IMG/VR virus record: IMGVR_UViG_3300012286_000299
Coordinates: 109,277 to 173,276 of that record
DNA length: 64,000 bases
From: a virus
Lineage: Duplodnaviria > Heunggongvirae > Uroviricota > Caudoviricetes
Reading direction: 5' to 3' (one strand)
Below the pieces are notes generated by a model that saw only the letters and a program-made list of their open reading frames with translations, did not search any database and was not told the origin of the DNA. The translations under genes and the position numbers were made by a program. Below are positions 8,080-64,000 of the stretch, in pieces; position 1 is the first letter of the stretch, and each line of letters starts with the position of its first letter.

Positions 8080-8378
8080 AAAATTTAGAAACATGTCACC
8101 ATTGTGGTGAAGAAAAAGAAAACTGTTATCATGGATTTATAGCAATGACTCTTCCAATTCCTGAAGCAGAAGCTAAAAAGGAAAAATGGGGAGGGAAAGA
8201 ATGGTGGAAAAATTTAGAAAGAACAGATCTTACTAAAGAAGAGATGGAAGAGTTAGATGGACTTTGTACGTATGACCAACTACTAAATACAGTTGGAAGA
8301 GGAGTGCAGTGTGATGATTGTGGAAAAAGAGAAGCAGAACTTTATGAAATATATTATCCAAAAAGTTTGGAATCTTAA
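8076..8378 (+). CDS. small zinc-binding-type protein
   Basis: The frame of ORF 8028 was trimmed to the ATGA-coupled ATG at 8076. Two CxxC pairs (CHHCG, CDDCG). Confidence 0.55.
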   Translation: MKNLETCHHCGEEKENCYHGFIAMTLPIPEAEAKKEKWGGKEWWKNLERTDLTKEEMEELDGLCTYDQLLNTVGRGVQCDDCGKREAELYEIYYPKSLES

Positions 8379-8397
8379 AATAAATTTTGTATATTAA
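8367..8397 (+). promoter_or_regulatory. promoter, TTG-N20-TATATTAA
   Basis: TTG at 8367-8369 and a TTTGTATATTAA core. Precedes the small ORF 8414. Confidence 0.55.
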
Positions 8398-8413
8398 ATA
8401 AAAAATAAAAGTT

Positions 8414-8590
8414 ATGTTTGATACAATTTTAAAATGGTGGAACAGAAAGTGGAGTAATTGGGAACTTGATACTCCTGATTGTAAAGTATTTAATGATGAT
8501 TCATCAAAACGGCCTTGGCAGATCTACGATAGATTTAAACGTACATCTAATGATGGGTTAGTAGAGTATAAAAAAGTTATTAAATCATGA
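8414..8590 (+). CDS. hypothetical 58-aa protein (below the ORF-track cutoff)
   Basis: Translated by hand: MFDTILKWWNRKW...KKVIKS. Fills an otherwise empty gap. Confidence 0.5.
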   Translation: MFDTILKWWNRKWSNWELDTPDCKVFNDDSSKRPWQIYDRFKRTSNDGLVEYKKVIKS

Positions 8591-55297: not shown

Positions 55298-55366
55298 AGT
55301 CAGGTAGTGTAATGGTAGCACCCGGAGGTCACACTTCTAGAACAGGTTCGAATCCTGTCCTGACTA
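55298..55366 (+). tRNA. tRNA-like element 1 (69 nt, non-canonical; possible pseudo-tRNA, loop GUCACAC would read CAC/Val)
   Basis: Good acceptor stem AGTCAGG/CCTGACT, D arm GTGT-AATGGTA-GCAC and T arm ACAGG-TTCGAAT-CCTGT. Only 20 nt remain for position 26, the anticodon arm and the variable loop, and the best stem needs 2 G-U pairs and a C-A mismatch. No encoded CCA. Confidence 0.45.
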
Positions 55367-55367
55367 C
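55344..55367 (+). repeat. 24-nt exact direct repeat (copy 1): AGGTTCGAATCCTGTCCTGACTAC
   Basis: Identical to 55560-55583. It is the T arm plus 3' acceptor of both tRNA-like elements. Confidence 0.95.
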
Positions 55368-55482: not shown

Positions 55483-55582
55483 AGTCAGGTGGCACTGAAG
55501 GTAGAGTGCTCCATAAAATAAGCAATAAGTGGTAATATGGTACCAATACTTATAGCCTTAGGTTCGAATCCTGTCCTGACTA
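55483..55582 (+). tRNA. tRNA-like element 2 (100 nt) with a long internal hairpin in place of a normal anticodon/variable region
   Basis: Same acceptor stem and T loop as element 1. D arm GCAC-TGAAGGTAGA-GTGC (type-II-like). Local positions 40-74 (55522-55556) fold into a ~13-bp interrupted hairpin (ATAAGT/ACTTAT plus TGGTA/TACCA). No encoded CCA. Confidence 0.4.
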
Positions 55583-55583
55583 C
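55560..55583 (+). repeat. 24-nt exact direct repeat (copy 2)
   Basis: See 55344-55367. Confidence 0.95.
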
Positions 55584-55592
55584 TATAACAAT

Positions 55593-59037: not shown

Positions 59038-59499
59038 ATGAACAGAATTGAAATCATTGCAGAAGTAAAAAAATTAGGTTTAACAACAGAAAAACCTGCG
59101 CACCAATGTAAAACTGATTACTTACAACAAGTATTAGATGCACACTATGCAACTAGTGTTGAAGTAAAACAGAAAGGTAGACCTGTGAATGAAAACAGTG
59201 AACGCCAAAAACGACTTGCTGAATTAGAAGCAAAACGTGAAGCAGGTGAACTACGTAAAGGTAGACCAGTAGTGGAAGGTAGTGCTCGTCAAGTGAGATT
59301 ATCACTTAAAGGTACATTGCCATTAGGTAGAAAACCAAATCCTGAAAGCGCTGCTTACAAACGTAAAATGGAATTGGAAGCAAAACGTGCTGCGGGTGAA
59401 CTAAAAAGAGGTAGACCAGCACAAGTAAAAGAAGCAGCTGAACCAGTAGCAGCTCAAGTAGAAGCGCCTGCAGCAGCAGAGCCACAAACTGAAGTATAA
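59038..59499 (+). CDS. AT-hook-type DNA-binding protein with a HeH/SAP-like N-terminus and an internal repeat
   Basis: GRP cores x4 (KGRPVNE, KGRPVVE, LGRKPNP, KRGRPAQ). Repeated ELEAKR(E/A)AGEL(R/K)(K/R)GRP. Ala/Pro-rich tail. Visibly GC-richer. Confidence 0.7.
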   Translation: MNRIEIIAEVKKLGLTTEKPAHQCKTDYLQQVLDAHYATSVEVKQKGRPVNENSERQKRLAELEAKREAGELRKGRPVVEGSARQVRLSLKGTLPLGRKPNPESAAYKRKMELEAKRAAGELKRGRPAQVKEAAEPVAAQVEAPAAAEPQTEV

Positions 59500-59516
59500 G
59501 AATTAATTACAGAAAA

Positions 59517-59541
59517 GGGACATGACGATTAGTTATGTCCC
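59517..59541 (+). terminator. hairpin after ORF 59038
   Basis: GGGACAT gacgattagtt ATGTCCC followed by TTACTTT. Confidence 0.55.
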
Positions 59542-59568
59542 TTACTTTAACCCTTAATCAGTATATAT

Positions 59569-59805
59569 TTGAAAAGACATACAGTAATTAGCAAAAAATA
59601 TGTTGAAACCTACAAAAATTACCCTAAAGCAAAACCCAAACCACAATATATAATTGGGTGTGTTTATTATGGAAGAAACCGCTCAAATCATTTAAAATTA
59701 GGCATACTAACCTTATTTGGTGATAGGGTATCAACTTTAAAAACTAAAGATGGTAAATTGGTTAAAGTTAAAAATAACACTCTAAAAAGCGCTCAAACAG
59801 GGTAG
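59569..59805 (+). CDS. hypothetical basic protein (start codon doubtful)
   Basis: The ORF track uses a TTG that is part of a perfect TATATTTG (-7-type) box at 59564-59571. There is no in-frame ATG. Confidence 0.35.
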   Translation: MKRHTVISKKYVETYKNYPKAKPKPQYIIGCVYYGRNRSNHLKLGILTLFGDRVSTLKTKDGKLVKVKNNTLKSAQTG

Positions 59806-59835
59806 TTTGAGGTATAATTTAACTTCGTATATTAA
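59805..59835 (+). promoter_or_regulatory. cassette promoter
   Basis: TTGAGGTATAATTTAACTTCGTATATTAAAGTATAATTAA. Precedes ORF 59860. Confidence 0.65.
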
Positions 59836-59859
59836 AGTATAATTAATAAATACATTATT

Positions 59860-59982
59860 ATGGTAAAAGTAGTTAAATCAGGCATCACATATTATGAGGT
59901 AAATTTAGGTAGTATATCTCTAATTGCATTTGAACCACAGGAATTAGTTATTAGCAACAGAAAAACCTGCGCACCAATGTAA
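59860..59982 (+). CDS. 40-aa ORF whose 3' end is rewritten by the duplication junction
   Basis: MVKVVKSGITYYEVNLGSISLIAFEPQELVI then SNRKTCAPM-stop. The second copy at 60731 ends RMVNMNISLN-stop. Confidence 0.4.
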   Translation: MVKVVKSGITYYEVNLGSISLIAFEPQELVISNRKTCAPM

Positions 59983-60370
59983 AACTGATTACTTACAACA
60001 AGTATTAGATGCACACTATGCAACTAGTGTTGAAGTAAAACAGAAAGGTAGACCTGTGAATGAAAACAGTGAACGCCAAAAACGACTTGCTGAATTAGAA
60101 GCAAAACGTGAAGCAGGTGAACTACGTAAAGGTAGACCAGTAGTGGAAGGTAGTGCTCGTCAAGTGAGATTATCACTTAAAGGTACATTGCCATTAGGTA
60201 GAAAACCAAATCCTGAAAGCGCTGCTTACAAACGTAAAATGGAATTGGAAGCAAAACGTGCTGCGGGTGAACTAAAAAGAGGTAGACCAGCACAAGTAAA
60301 AGAAGCAGCTGAACCAGTAGCAGCTCAAGTAGAAGCGCCTGCAGCAGCAGAGCCACAAACTGAAGTATAA
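59948..60370 (+). pseudogene. 5'-truncated duplicate of the AT-hook gene (lacks the first 15 codons, promoter and ATG)
   Basis: The frame opens after a TAG at 59945-59947. The ORF track could only start it at a GTG (60056). Sequence is identical to 59077-59499. Confidence 0.6.
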
Positions 60371-60387
60371 GAATTAATTACAGAAAA

Positions 60388-60412
60388 GGGACATGACGAT
60401 TAGTTATGTCCC
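60388..60412 (+). terminator. hairpin (duplicate of 59517-59541)
   Basis: Identical sequence at +871. Confidence 0.55.
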
Positions 60413-60439
60413 TTACTTTAACCCTTAATCAGTATATAT

Positions 60440-60676
60440 TTGAAAAGACATACAGTAATTAGCAAAAAATATGTTGAAACCTACAAAAATTACCCTAAAG
60501 CAAAACCCAAACCACAATATATAATTGGGTGTGTTTATTATGGAAGAAACCGCTCAAATCATTTAAAATTAGGCATACTAACCTTATTTGGTGATAGGGT
60601 ATCAACTTTAAAAACTAAAGATGGTAAATTGGTTAAAGTTAAAAATAACACTCTAAAAAGCGCTCAAACAGGGTAG
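60440..60676 (+). CDS. duplicate of ORF 59569 (same start-codon doubt)
   Basis: Identical 78-aa translation. Confidence 0.35.
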   Translation: MKRHTVISKKYVETYKNYPKAKPKPQYIIGCVYYGRNRSNHLKLGILTLFGDRVSTLKTKDGKLVKVKNNTLKSAQTG

Positions 60677-60706
60677 TTTGAGGTATAATTTAACTTCGTA
60701 TATTAA
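60676..60706 (+). promoter_or_regulatory. cassette promoter (duplicate)
   Basis: Identical to 59805-59835. Precedes ORF 60731. Confidence 0.65.
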
Positions 60707-60730
60707 AGTATAATTAATAAATACATTATT

Positions 60731-60856
60731 ATGGTAAAAGTAGTTAAATCAGGCATCACATATTATGAGGTAAATTTAGGTAGTATATCTCTAATTGCAT
60801 TTGAACCACAGGAATTAGTTATTAGAATGGTAAACATGAATATATCACTAAACTAA
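60731..60856 (+). CDS. 41-aa ORF, presumably the ancestral version of ORF 59860
   Basis: Promoter-driven; below the ORF-track cutoff. Confidence 0.45.
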   Translation: MVKVVKSGITYYEVNLGSISLIAFEPQELVIRMVNMNISLN

Positions 60857-61950: not shown

Positions 61951-62316
61951 ATGAAAAAAGTTGTAAAAAAAGCATCACAGGTTAAGGTATCTATTACCCA
62001 CAAAACATTAATGGTGAATTTCGAGTTCCCAATTGTAGTAGGACAAGTTAAGATAATTGCTATTGGTCTAGCTCATGTTTATAAGGGTGATGAATCAGGA
62101 CAAATTGAAGCAGATATCGATTTTATGGATTATGGGGAAACAACCTATATGGACATGCCTGTTGAGGGGTATGAGGGTGTGAAAAAGTTAAAGGAAATGC
62201 ACAAAGGATTTGGTATTGACTTAGGTACCCTAATTGATAATGAATTCAATAAGGTTGTAACAGAGGAATTCAAAACCGAATTCCTAAAACAATTCGACGT
62301 TAGAATGTTTGAATAA
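61951..62316 (+). CDS. hypothetical protein
   Basis: ORF track; own promoter. Confidence 0.65.
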   Translation: MKKVVKKASQVKVSITHKTLMVNFEFPIVVGQVKIIAIGLAHVYKGDESGQIEADIDFMDYGETTYMDMPVEGYEGVKKLKEMHKGFGIDLGTLIDNEFNKVVTEEFKTEFLKQFDVRMFE

Positions 62317-62323
62317 TAAAAAT

Positions 62324-62342
62324 AAGCCCCGGAATGGGGCTT
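62324..62342 (+). terminator. hairpin terminator
   Basis: AAGCCCC GGAAT GGGGCTT. Confidence 0.6.
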
Positions 62343-62365
62343 ATAAATTTTACTTCGTATATTTA
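62335..62365 (+). promoter_or_regulatory. cassette promoter
   Basis: TTTTACTTCGTATATTTAAGTATAATTAA. Precedes ORF 62388. Confidence 0.6.
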
Positions 62366-62387
62366 AGTATAATTAAAAATTAAGGTT

Positions 62388-62705
62388 ATGTTAAATACAA
62401 CTTATTTAGGAAGAGAAATCACTAGACGTGATAATGTTAAAGTAGAAGGTACATTCCAATCATTTTATGAGGCATCAAAACGTTTGATGGGGATGGGTTA
62501 TATAATGGGAAGCATGTGTGGAGATGAACCAATAGGGTTTGCCGATGCAGACAAATACGAGTATATTGCCAAATGGAGAAACATTGACCCGAGCGATAGA
62601 GTAAAAGTGGACGGGGTAATGATCAGTAGTGACTGGAGAGAGGGTAGTGTTGAAATAATATGGTTTAAAGAGCCATTAAATAAGGCAGTAGCGGGTATAA
62701 ATTAA
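62388..62705 (+). CDS. hypothetical protein
   Basis: ORF track; own promoter. Confidence 0.65.
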   Translation: MLNTTYLGREITRRDNVKVEGTFQSFYEASKRLMGMGYIMGSMCGDEPIGFADADKYEYIAKWRNIDPSDRVKVDGVMISSDWREGSVEIIWFKEPLNKAVAGIN

Positions 62706-62718
62706 CTTCGTATATTGA
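62688..62718 (+). promoter_or_regulatory. cassette promoter
   Basis: GCGGGTATAAATTAACTTCGTATATTGAGGTATAATTAA. Overlaps the 3' end of ORF 62388. Precedes ORF 62743. Confidence 0.6.
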
Positions 62719-62742
62719 GGTATAATTAAAAAAGTAAACGTT

Positions 62743-63087
62743 ATGGTAAAAGAAATTACTGCAATAGATAAACTGATTGCTATTGAGGAAATGCTTGTTA
62801 AAATGAGGTATGACACTACAGGAATGAGTGTGAGCCAAGCACTGGAAATAATGAAGGCAACGGTAAAGGCTATTGATAAAGCAAAATTACCCTCAAACAC
62901 GATTTACCCTATGACACGAGACGATTTATACAAAATAATGGATTCAGAAAACTATACGGTGGACGAGATCAAAGATTCAGTGTATATGGGGAACAGAATA
63001 ACCACTATATTGGAGAATGAGGACGTGGAGATAGATGACGAACAGGTAAAGGTGTTGGTGGTAGAGTACCAAAATGCTAGAGCATAG
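62743..63087 (+). CDS. hypothetical protein
   Basis: ORF track; own promoter. Confidence 0.65.
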   Translation: MVKEITAIDKLIAIEEMLVKMRYDTTGMSVSQALEIMKATVKAIDKAKLPSNTIYPMTRDDLYKIMDSENYTVDEIKDSVYMGNRITTILENEDVEIDDEQVKVLVVEYQNARA

Positions 63088-63231
63088 TAATGTTAAACCA
63101 TTCCAATATCTAAAGATATCGTAATGTGGAAACTTATTCCTAGTATATTGGGGTAACGGACAAATGTTCCGGCGGTAACGCTTAATAGTATAGTTGTATG
63201 TGGAAATTGGGTTAAATTGGGGTGGATAATA

Positions 63232-63256
63232 GGGCAGGGTCTCCGCTCCCCTGCCC
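63232..63256 (+). other. GC-rich 8-bp stem hairpin inside an ORF-free GC-rich spacer
   Basis: GGGCAGGG tctccgctc CCCTGCCC. Confidence 0.7.
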
Positions 63257-63311
63257 CGTTATGGAATAACTTTCCTCCCTACCTCCCTTGTATATACAAT
63301 TTTTAATGGAA

Positions 63312-63342
63312 CTAGGTGGAACAAATCAACTTCGTATATTAT
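63312..63342 (+). promoter_or_regulatory. cassette promoter
   Basis: CAACTTCGTATATTATAGTATATTAA. Precedes ORF 63371. Confidence 0.6.
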
Positions 63343-63370
63343 AGTATATTAATAATTAAACAACTATATT

Positions 63371-63553
63371 ATGATAAAGTTTGAGGTTTACCCAAGTGTT
63401 AGATTACAAGCACACCAATTGTTAATCAATTCGAACCGTTTGAAAAGTGTATTTTATAATACTGGAAATACTTTCCTAATTGACCCCGTTGATTTACCTC
63501 GTTGTAAGGAAATACTTACCAAACGAATGATTAAATTAAAGGTAGTTAATTAA
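63371..63553 (+). CDS. hypothetical protein
   Basis: ORF track; own promoter. Confidence 0.6.
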   Translation: MIKFEVYPSVRLQAHQLLINSNRLKSVFYNTGNTFLIDPVDLPRCKEILTKRMIKLKVVN

Positions 63554-63557
63554 GGTA

Positions 63558-63588
63558 ATAGGGGAATAAAAATCCCTTCGTATATTAT
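63558..63588 (+). promoter_or_regulatory. cassette promoter
   Basis: TCCCTTCGTATATTATAGTATAATAA. Precedes ORF 63619. Confidence 0.6.
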
Positions 63589-63618
63589 AGTATAATAAAA
63601 AATATAAAATTAAAGGTT

Positions 63619-63855
63619 ATGAAAGCTAAAGTACAAATTAAATCAGTGTTCGAACAAATTGCAGGTAAAGTATTTACCATGACCAATGTTACCCAAGCCA
63701 AAGAGTATATCACTGAATTTATTACCAGTAAAGGTATTGATGGTACCGACAAACAAACCATCGTTAATAACGTTAATAAATGTACCTCAATTGCACAACT
63801 ACAACGTTACGTGTGTAATTCATTATTAATGTATGAGGGTATGGGTATCAGTTAA
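63619..63855 (+). CDS. hypothetical protein
   Basis: ORF track; own promoter. Confidence 0.65.
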   Translation: MKAKVQIKSVFEQIAGKVFTMTNVTQAKEYITEFITSKGIDGTDKQTIVNNVNKCTSIAQLQRYVCNSLLMYEGMGIS

Positions 63856-63885
63856 TACCCCGCTATTACCCACATTCCCACCGCA

Positions 63886-63930
63886 GGGACCCAGGCTTTA
63901 CAGCCCCGGGTCCCTTCTTTGTTTTTCTTT
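63886..63930 (+). terminator. strong GC-rich rho-independent terminator
   Basis: GGGACCC-a-GGCT ttac AGCC-cc-GGGTCCC followed by TTCTTTGTTTTTCTTT. Confidence 0.75.
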
Positions 63931-63940
63931 CCCTTTTCGT

Positions 63941-63961
63941 CCGAATTCGGTCCGCATGCGG
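63941..63961. repeat. two back-to-back perfect 10-bp palindromes
   Basis: CCGAATTCGG (63941-63950) and CCGCATGCGG (63952-63961), separated by one T, in GC-rich DNA. Confidence 0.9.
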
Positions 63962-64000
63962 ATCGGCACGGGTTGCCCACGCGGCGTTGCTGTCCATAAA

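Follow-up and report, generated by a model that had tools for sequence, protein, structure and literature searches.

The closest described counterparts of the locus examined here come from T4-like phages and from lambda. The PeSL architecture has been described in the hyperplastic regions of T4-like phages (Comeau 2014, PMC4122927); PeSL and PmSL are composites of a terminator stem-loop with, respectively, an early promoter or a Mot box plus a -10 element (Arbiol 2010, PMC2839356; Comeau 2014, PMC4122927), and T4-type middle promoters, consisting of a Mot box and a -10 element, occur in the PmSL cassettes (PMC4122927). Here we describe a conserved non-coding element of 176 nucleotides (nt) found near the end of a 64,000-nt stretch of viral DNA (hereafter the window; positions 109,277 to 173,276 of IMG/VR record IMGVR_UViG_3300012286_000299, Caudoviricetes). 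Several phage systems offer themselves for comparison with such an element. In T4 middle promoters an activator box lies at about -30, upstream of the -10 element, and the T4 origins oriF(uvsY) and oriG(34) are composed of a middle promoter and a downstream unwinding element, and are primed through an R-loop. The T4 species 1 and 2 RNAs (rnaC and rnaD) are small stable RNAs encoded near the tRNA cluster and processed from the tRNA transcript, and a C-rich, G-poor composition is typical of Rho utilization (rut) sites such as lambda tR1. The element belongs to no described family; its broad kind is that of a conserved phage non-coding element or small RNA.

The element lies in an ORF-free gap (63088-63370) between the stop codon of an open reading frame (ORF) at 62743-63087, encoding 114 amino acids (aa), and the ATG at 63371. 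The first-pass annotation, made from the sequence alone, had described this place as an ORF-free, G+C-enriched spacer rich in repeats and hairpins, which could encode a small RNA or a cis-acting site, and had named conservation in relatives and an Infernal/Rfam scan among the ways to check it. Both the gap and its enrichment were confirmed: no ORF of at least 30 aa is present on either strand, and only three of at least 20 aa (21-29 aa, a chance-level number) were found, while the G+C content reaches 39.7% in 63088-63329 and 44.6% in 63121-63295 against 29.7% for the window, a level matched by only 2% of 242-nt windows. Conservation was found as well. Profile searches of all fetched contigs identified 16 distinct full-length homologues of 175-177 nt, one per locus, and the comparison shows that the gap holds a discrete, conserved and length-locked non-coding element; what matters in this place is that element as a whole more than the individual hairpins or repeats. 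In the essentially gap-free alignment of these homologues (A5), in which column n is window position 63121 + n, 45 columns are invariant. The parts of the element and the segments flanking it are as follows:

63122-63297, + strand: conserved non-coding element, 176 nt, with full-length nhmmer and cmsearch matches in relatives
63122-63131, + strand: 10-nt head box TAATGTGGAA (columns 1-10; TAATG and AA invariant, columns 6-8 varying in a few lineages)
the 12 nt that follow the head box: spacer, free in sequence, fixed in length
63141-63149, + strand: -10-like TAGTATATT (columns 20-28, TA(G/A)TATAnT; TATATT at 63144-63149)
63155-63156, + strand: invariant AA (columns 34-35), 6-7 nt after the -10-like hexamer
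63150-63241, + strand: G-rich, C-poor block, or G-block (columns 29-120)
about columns 36-72: hypervariable stretch, replaced wholesale in some clades with its length unchanged
63194-63206, + strand: second box TTGTATGTGGAAA of the (T)RTGGAAA type (consensus TTGTAT(G/A)TGGAAAYYG, columns 73-88; 76-85 nearly invariant)
63219-63226, + strand: GGGGTGGA (consensus TTGGGGTG(G/A)AT, columns 97-106)
63220-63224, + strand: GGGTG, 5' arm of a candidate long-range helix with 63280-63284 (TACCT; columns 99-103/159-163)
about columns 112-129: conserved block GGGCAGGGTTCCGCTCCC
63242-63289, + strand: C-rich, G-poor block, or C-block (columns 121-168), holding the pyrimidine tract
63263-63275, + strand: GGAATAACTTTCC, or TGAATGAGTTT in other copies (columns 142-154)
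63290-63297, + strand: terminal palindrome GTATATAC (columns 169-176; TATATA invariant)
63088-63121, + strand: 34-nt spacer after the 114-aa ORF, present in the window clade only (L010, L011) and holding an AT palindrome
63298-63370, + strand: early-promoter cassette and leader of the 60-aa ORF, outside the element (core CTTCGTATATT at 63330, profile score 38.1)

The element is single-copy in the window. Beyond the 16 homologues, two weaker ones (L042 and L046) measure 175 nt each from TAATGT to GTATATAC, and two analogues (L044 and L006) keep the layout with little alignable sequence. A covariance model (R1) recovered the 16 homologues and, weakly, L042 (15 bits, E = 0.003 in 500 nt with filters off); L044 was not recovered by it. 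The two analogues, at ~237-440 of L044 and ~1500-1700 of L006, are laid out as a G-block, a C-block and AAGTATATAC, with GTGGAAA 98-99 nt before GTATATAC. In L005 an identity of 72% runs right through the gap despite an unrelated upstream gene, and the diverged copies in L001 and L003, which blastn missed, were seen by motif look-up. Scans with the head pattern added one new metagenome homologue, the rest being chance matches, as was the lone genome match (Pontibacillus). A blastn search of 62700-64000 against the annotated phages of INPHARED gave no match, and the exact GC hairpin described below was not found in IMG/VR. The flanking 114-aa and 60-aa genes had no relatives in IMG/VR; the search with the 60-aa gene led to three short contigs, and that with the 78-aa gene (63619-63855) led to the IMG/VR contigs used here and to 146 protein clusters.

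Compensating indels maintain the length of the element. In the window clade one base is missing 5' of GGGCAGGG and an extra one is present 3' of it, and L044 first runs ~6 nt short and then ~6 nt long within the interval from the second GTGGAAA box to GTATATAC, which measures 98-99 nt in all lineages, L044 included. Composition is equally stable: in all 18 lineages G makes up 28-43% and C 3-12% of columns 29-120 (background, 17.5% and 12.3%, respectively), and columns 121-168 contain 23-54% C and 2-19% G. This block layout is kept in 18/18 lineages even where the sequence itself was replaced, and a scan for a G-block followed by a C-block picked out this site only in the 64-kb window. Most clades carry ACAACGGACAAATGTTCC after the invariant AA. 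The identity to relatives (58-72%) equals that of the third codon positions of the neighbouring genes, and among the closest relatives divergence amounts to 11-14% in the element but to 5% at third positions in the gene next to it. It follows that the constraint lies mainly in the boxes, in the length and in the composition. The copy in L033 (5237-5412) is a mosaic, nearly identical in its 5' half to L034 (5169-5344) and resembling L003 (3694-3869) and L001 in its 3' half; recombination breakpoints therefore lie inside the element.

None of the reading frames stays open throughout the copies, all six are interrupted by stops in the window copy, and the variable columns are distributed evenly over the codon phases (42, 43 and 46), with no 3-nt periodicity. 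A fairly open frame 2 of the - strand was considered as a hidden ORF and rejected: it contains stops in 9/16 sequences, has no start codon in the window copy and shows no periodicity. The upstream genes belong to at least four unrelated families among the relatives, and the downstream genes vary likewise (the 60-aa ORF here, ORFs of 50 to 75 aa elsewhere); for this reason the element is not the untranslated region of one particular gene. In many relatives the stop codon of the upstream ORF is the first TAA of the element, with no promoter cassette between them, and the distance from the element to the promoter corresponding to that at 63330 varies. The element is thus autonomous, persisting while the cassettes around it are exchanged. 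Neither Pfam nor PHROG assigned an informative domain to the neighbouring proteins.

Downstream, the 78-aa gene is followed by a strong intrinsic terminator at 63878-63907 (GGGACCCAGGC...GCCCCGGGTCCC and a T-run). A second non-coding region of ~280 nt, with more than 50% G+C, lies within 63856-64000 and beyond, and its conservation extends to the most distant relatives. A full copy, at 1298-1599 of L011, contains the conserved blocks CGTTGCTGTCC, CAGATCGAAAACGATCT and CCCCTGTATATAC; the region has no Rfam match, ends in CYYGTATATAC and closes the promoter-dense arm. Within the fetched loci CYYGTATATAC is confined to two places, the ends of the element and of this second region.

All of the individual sequence features listed in the first-pass annotation are present, with two of its coordinates off by 1 nt:

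63106-63119: AT palindrome ATATCT-AA-AGATAT, as first given
63121-63132: GTAATGTGGAAA, first copy of a direct repeat
63196-63206: GTATGTGGAAA, second copy of the direct repeat (first placed at 63195)
63152 and 63174: GGTAACG, as first given
63139-63149: promoter-like core CCTAGTATATT (the string first given was off by one)
63209-63239: G tracts, as first given
63232-63239 and 63249-63256: 8-bp GC hairpin GGGCAGGG/CCCTGCCC with a 9-nt loop, extending to 63226-63262
63270-63289: pyrimidine tract

To assess their significance, 63088-63340 was dinucleotide-shuffled 1000 times. Perfect stems of 7 or more G-C pairs arose in 3/1000 shuffles, the four-G-tract pattern in 15/1000 and as many repeated 7-mers as observed (11, against a shuffled mean of 4.1) in 17/1000. 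The gap, the G+C enrichment, the GC hairpin, the G tracts and the general repetitiveness are thus beyond chance. Taken alone, the AT palindrome (a 6-bp perfect stem of this kind in 593/1000 shuffles), the 9-mer repeat (a direct repeat of at least 9 nt in 244/1000) and GGTAACG (one repeated 7-mer being chance-expected) are not. The exact 9-mer common to both repeat copies, ATGTGGAAA, occurs at 63124 and 63198, 74 nt apart; a CRISPR-like repeat-spacer reading of this period was rejected, the boxes sharing only 12 nt. Folding of the whole gap is only modestly better than that of shuffles (z about -2 on both strands).

These local features are real in the window copy but, for the most part, are not what the relatives preserve. 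The GC hairpin is stable here (-18.4 kcal/mol for the extended form, 63226-63262; z = -3.9), but among the 16 homologues it pairs in 61.7% of cells, against 58.6% when its 3' arm is slid by 1 column; two mismatches interrupt its centre in L010, and it is absent from L001, L003, L026 and L033. An overlapping hairpin, GGGC(A)GG/CCGCTCC, drawn from near-invariant sequence, is 78% paired and likewise unsupported as a conserved stem. Of the G tracts only two G3 tracts are left in the L005 clade, and a G-quadruplex was rejected as unconserved, the L005, L023 and L054 copies having only two such tracts. GGTAACG is replaced by GGGACAACGG / GGCGGTAGCG in the closest relatives, and only CTTTCCT is kept of the pyrimidine tract. 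The AT palindrome, a chance-level stem, stands outside the element in the window clade only; L013 has another palindrome, ATACCTTTAAAGGTAT, in its place.

The setting of the element bears on how its head is to be read. Every sizeable ORF of the window is on the + strand, and the window encodes a family-B DNA polymerase, a GroEL-like chaperonin, a thymidylate synthase, an ATP-dependent ligase, a PARP-like domain and several glycosyltransferases. The best matches of the polymerase in annotated phages (Microcystis phage Mel-JY01 and T4-like phages) are 28-34% identical. Relatives of the last gene of the window lie on lake metagenomic contigs of 162-173 kb, and the window is therefore a piece of a large, AT-rich uncultivated phage of about 165 kb. 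From ~38 kb to the end of the window a near-identical cassette precedes each small ORF, and its core CTTCGTATATT occurs 39 times at no more than 1 mismatch, against 2 expected. The cassette profile spans 50 nt (a -35-like TTGnnn, 17 nt, CTTCG-TATATT, then AGTATAAT), with AAAGGTT-ATG of an ORF within about 25-45 nt downstream as a second criterion; the extended consensus is ..TTGGA (or TTGAGG)..N..CTTCGTATATTaaAGTATAATT..AAAGGTTATG. A position weight matrix (PWM) of 50 columns was built from 33 cassette sites, and true sites score 30-50 bits in it:

window 38200-63600: early-promoter cassettes, about 34 copies (e.g. 62706, 63330, 63576), PWM 30-50, with a clean gap to all other positions

A GC stem-loop with a T-run often stands immediately 5' of the cassette. 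The arm thereby resembles the PeSL/PmSL regions of T4-like phages, with its ~34 cassettes, often following a GC stem-loop, flanking small swappable ORFs. The same arm contains a tandem direct repeat (59080-59950 and 59951-60821) with an 871-nt period, its copies matching at 100% over at least 300 nt; the flanks of the promoters at 59823 and 60694 are identical too, and an A/E/K-rich 104-aa ORF is duplicated. Either a real duplication or an artefact of assembly could account for it.

The 'degenerate promoter-like core' of the first-pass annotation falls on the best-conserved part of the element, its -10-like columns, but it is not of the early-promoter class. The early-promoter PWM gives -6.8 at 63139 and -19.6 at the tail site 63286, against 30-50 for true sites, and the core is therefore not a weak member of that class. 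In A5, T20, A21, T23, T25, A26 and T28 are invariant and column 27 varies (A/G/T), a pattern that fits a -10 hexamer, in which a variable fifth position is typical. The box (columns 1-10) and TATAnT (columns 23-28) are separated by 12 nt in 16/18 lineages. This is the spacing of T4-type middle promoters, in which the box lies 11-13 bp 5' of a TAnnnT hexamer, and the head shares with PmSL the Mot-type layout of a box at about -30 and a -10 hexamer. The Mot box itself, (a/t)(a/t)(a/t)TGCTT(t/c)A at -30, is absent, TAATGTGGAA being without TGCTT and unrelated to it. The element further differs from PeSL/PmSL in its PWM score, its single copy, its 176-nt length, its G+C-richness and the absence of a Shine-Dalgarno sequence or start codon after it. 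No ORF of at least 30 aa starts after 63149 until 63371, and the ORF at 63371 has its own cassette. Every gene of the arm has its own cassette, but none precedes the element. With its unique box, fixed-length spacer, TATAnT and invariant AA, the head looks like a promoter, in which case transcription may start at the invariant AA. The pattern AATGTRG-N10-16-TATAnT occurs once in the 64-kb window. Two other candidates were discarded: a second promoter class sharing the head (no other copies in the window or fetched loci), and a sigma-70 promoter inside the element (only 9/12 matches, and a count not above shuffles).

Based on these observations, we tentatively favour the possibility that the element is a small non-coding RNA gene on the + strand, with its own atypical promoter and a fold-back of the G-block onto the C-block. 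The atypical promoter would consist of the box TAATGTGGAA at about -34 to -25, the fixed 12-nt spacer and TATAnT. As the head has no -35 element, such a promoter would presumably be factor-dependent. Transcription would start at about 63155, and the ~140-nt transcript, G-rich and then C-rich, would fold into a long imperfect hairpin within which GGGUG (63220-63224) would pair with the C-rich tail (63280-63284); the RNA would end near the palindrome GUAUAUAC. Because all the genes of the window are on the + strand, the region is presumably transcribed at least by read-through. The predicted RNA would resemble the T4 species 1 and 2 RNAs in size class (about 140-180 nt), in its location among early genes on the coding strand, and in being conserved in relatives with no known function. 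It differs from them in lying 8 kb from the only tRNA-like gene of the window and in having neither tRNA-like features nor an Rfam match. ARAGORN found no tRNA or transfer-messenger RNA in the whole window other than this gene (55298-55367, reported as 'tRNA-???' with a 2-nt anticodon). Rfam scores the gene (55298-55366) as tRNA with 44.8 bits, with an abnormal anticodon arm. A second unit at ~55484-55585, called by neither ARAGORN nor Rfam, reuses its acceptor and T arm (AGTCAGG...GGTTCGAATCCTGTCCTGACTAC) around an insert of ~50 nt.

Several observations speak for a fold. The first is a three-helix skeleton (columns 75-81/170-176, 84-87/94-97 and 99-103/159-163), which pairs in 90% of cells and whose covariation (0.20) exceeds that of shuffles (0.15; 0/500) and of slid controls (0.08-0.16), with the caveat that related sequences can beat all shuffles without any structure. 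The second is the helix 99-103/159-163, which appears the most credible: 86% of cells pair, with GC, GU and UA types, the helix grows to 9 bp in L003 and 7 bp in L034, and in a model-fitted alignment L042 and L046 show a change from U-A to C-G. The third is the complementarity of the two blocks, whose duplexes reach -24 to -44 kcal/mol, any G-block pairing well with any C-block; a test of cognate against non-cognate arms for these blocks was marginal (298/5000, uncorrected for relatedness). Folding of the 3' domain in the window copy gives z = -2.6, and the frequent G-U pairs fit a + strand RNA better than DNA or the - strand. Two further pairings were rejected as conserved: the local hairpins GGAA-N5-TTCC and GGAC..GTTCC (80% paired, against 76% in the slid control), and a long-range pairing of 63121-63140 with 63263-63282, whose centre is non-complementary in L005.

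A number of results weigh against a small RNA gene. The covariation score stands above shuffles, but the two-sided changes in the skeleton amount to only 4 pairs, a non-significant number (55/500), so that support for a conserved fold is weak. The base helix 75-81/170-176 hardly varies, and the pairs that it loses in L042 and L044 are not compensated. RNAalifold yields a consensus of only -6.4 kcal/mol, the mean base-pair probability per column pair is at most 0.35 throughout, with no consensus fold, and the fold z-scores of the whole element scatter around -1. The cognate-arm test was marginal for the zone of the third helix (220/5000, uncorrected for relatedness) and null for the first helix. 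The Infernal/Rfam scan (Rfam 15 cmscan of 62000-64000, E up to 10) gave no match overlapping 63088-63340, and the copies in L005, L011, L013, L010 and L003 had none either. At the 3' end, no intrinsic terminator was found in the element, the GC hairpin at 63232-63256 being followed by CGTTATGG and no U tract. A terminator scan made calls at 62322 and 63560 and none in the element, and a U-run after GTATATAC occurs in two clades only. At the 5' end, the lack of a -35 element, the absence of further copies of the head from the 64-kb window and the fetched loci, and the lack of a head (box and -10) in L044 and L006 point the same way. The call at 62322 corresponds to a bidirectional terminator-like stem-loop at 62322-62344 (ATAAGCCCCGGAATGGGGCTTAT) with T-runs on both strands, located directly 5' of the promoter at 62353. 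Several weak Rfam leader matches in the 62000-64000 scan were merely this hairpin.

The strongest competitor of the RNA gene, which we nevertheless consider somewhat unlikely, is a protein-bound cis-acting DNA site, e.g. a replication origin of the R-loop type. The GTGGAA(A) boxes would then be iterons, the head promoter would provide a G-rich R-loop primer, and GTATATAC would be a dimer-binding site. Several features of the element suit this view: long invariant blocks separated by free sequence of strictly fixed length, motif distances held by compensating indels (the GTGGAAA-GTATATAC interval being kept even in L044), the weakness of the RNA-fold evidence, and a G-rich non-template strand downstream of a promoter-like head. 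Moreover, GTGGAA occurs three times in 253 nt, against 0.06 expected (P about 3e-5, in a post-hoc test), and L044 carries three direct copies of GTGGAAA and then two of the inverted TTCCAC just after GTATATAC, itself a perfect palindrome that recurs at the end of the next GC-rich non-coding region. The motif GGAA-N5-TTCC is found four times in the window (63128, 63263, 63464 and 41315; 0.69 expected), three of them within 350 nt. The copy at 63464 is inside the 60-aa ORF and is kept in L005, and the N5 of the first site is ACTTA/ACTTG or TAAGG/TAACG/TAGTG among relatives, like a flipped loop. The other TGGAA-rich place of the window (8185-8440) proved to be coding sequence.

The case against such a site begins with the irregular box spacings (30, 44, 22 and 39 nt), which are out of helical phase. 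DnaA boxes (TTATCCACA / TGTGGATAA) were rejected: their 21 one-mismatch matches in the window, against 27.8 expected, are at background level, and the single match in the element is unconserved. No initiator gene or DNA-binding gene was identified among the neighbouring proteins (Pfam/PHROG), GC skew does not switch here outside the local block, L044 and L006 have no head, and a DNA site would not easily account for complementarity rich in G-U. Nothing was found to suggest that the element is a packaging or partition site. The likeness to T4 oriF and oriG lies in a factor-type promoter geometry followed by a transcribed non-coding stretch in an early/middle gene region, and in a predicted RNA whose G-richness would help an RNA-DNA hybrid to persist. 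The sequences are not similar, and the A+T-rich unwinding element of T4 contrasts with the G-block and C-block found here; any origin function of the element is putative.

We regard as improbable a role of the element in controlling early-arm transcription on a read-through RNA. The C-block would act as a rut site of a Rho-dependent terminator or attenuator, access to it being gated by pairing with the G-block; alternatively, the fold could serve as a processing or stability hairpin. The C-block of the window copy has a composition that fits a rut site (46% C, 10% G), and in most lineages this 48-nt block contains 40-54% C and 2-15% G, within a genome of 30% G+C. It resembles lambda tR1 as a C-rich, G-poor tract of ~50 nt located 3' of a stop codon in a phage early operon; no promoter separates it from that stop. 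Strong pairing of the two blocks is possible, and a fresh promoter follows the element, so that termination here would insulate the next cassette. The complementary G-rich block, the conserved 5' boxes and the fixed total length set the element apart from tR1, and a terminator would not need the invariant head box, the -10-like hexamer, the second box or the fixed length. Other junctions of the arm use short GC stem-loops followed by T-runs, and the C-block is weaker in L042 and L046 (23-27% C).

Very doubtful is an alternative, differently timed promoter with a long regulatory leader for the 60-aa and 78-aa ORFs. The box at about -30 with its -10-like hexamer does resemble T4-type middle promoters (PMC4122927), and no terminator lies between the element and the next ORFs. 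However, the downstream genes differ among relatives while the element is constant, the next gene lies at varying distances, an early promoter of its own already serves each downstream gene, the box bears no relation to TGCTT, and 64 kb contain one copy of the architecture. Finally, a functionless decayed remnant of promoter cassettes and a lost small gene, to which the promoter-core-like GTATAT strings at the head, middle and tail and an identity no higher than that of neighbouring third codon positions (lower in close relatives) might point, is extremely unlikely and already disfavoured by the 45 invariant columns over 16 lineages, the length held by compensating indels, the composition kept even in very distant analogues, and the persistence of the element while the flanking genes are replaced.

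In its most specific form, the small-RNA reading would make the element a new family of small RNAs (or of elements forming RNA/DNA hybrids) restricted to one clade of uncultivated freshwater phages of ~165 kb, with a factor-dependent promoter, a locked length of 176 nt and a hypervariable G-rich cassette between invariant boxes, evolving faster than the neighbouring synonymous sites. We consider this complete picture unlikely. If true, the fast-evolving cassette would fit an arms-race molecule (an anti-defence decoy RNA) or an R-loop origin primer.

The element itself is a solid comparative observation, and its role is putative. Large phages from the environment have long arms in which tiny orphan genes are constantly shuffled, and the element is the one non-coding piece of this arm that is not shuffled away. 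Selection holds its length and the layout of its boxes while parts of it change faster than nearby silent sites. As an RNA gene, it would bring a family without an Rfam entry to the very few regulatory or decoy RNAs that phages are known to encode; as a DNA site, it may show where replication starts in a group of uncultivated phages. Either outcome would provide an experimental handle on genomes in which almost nothing is annotated.

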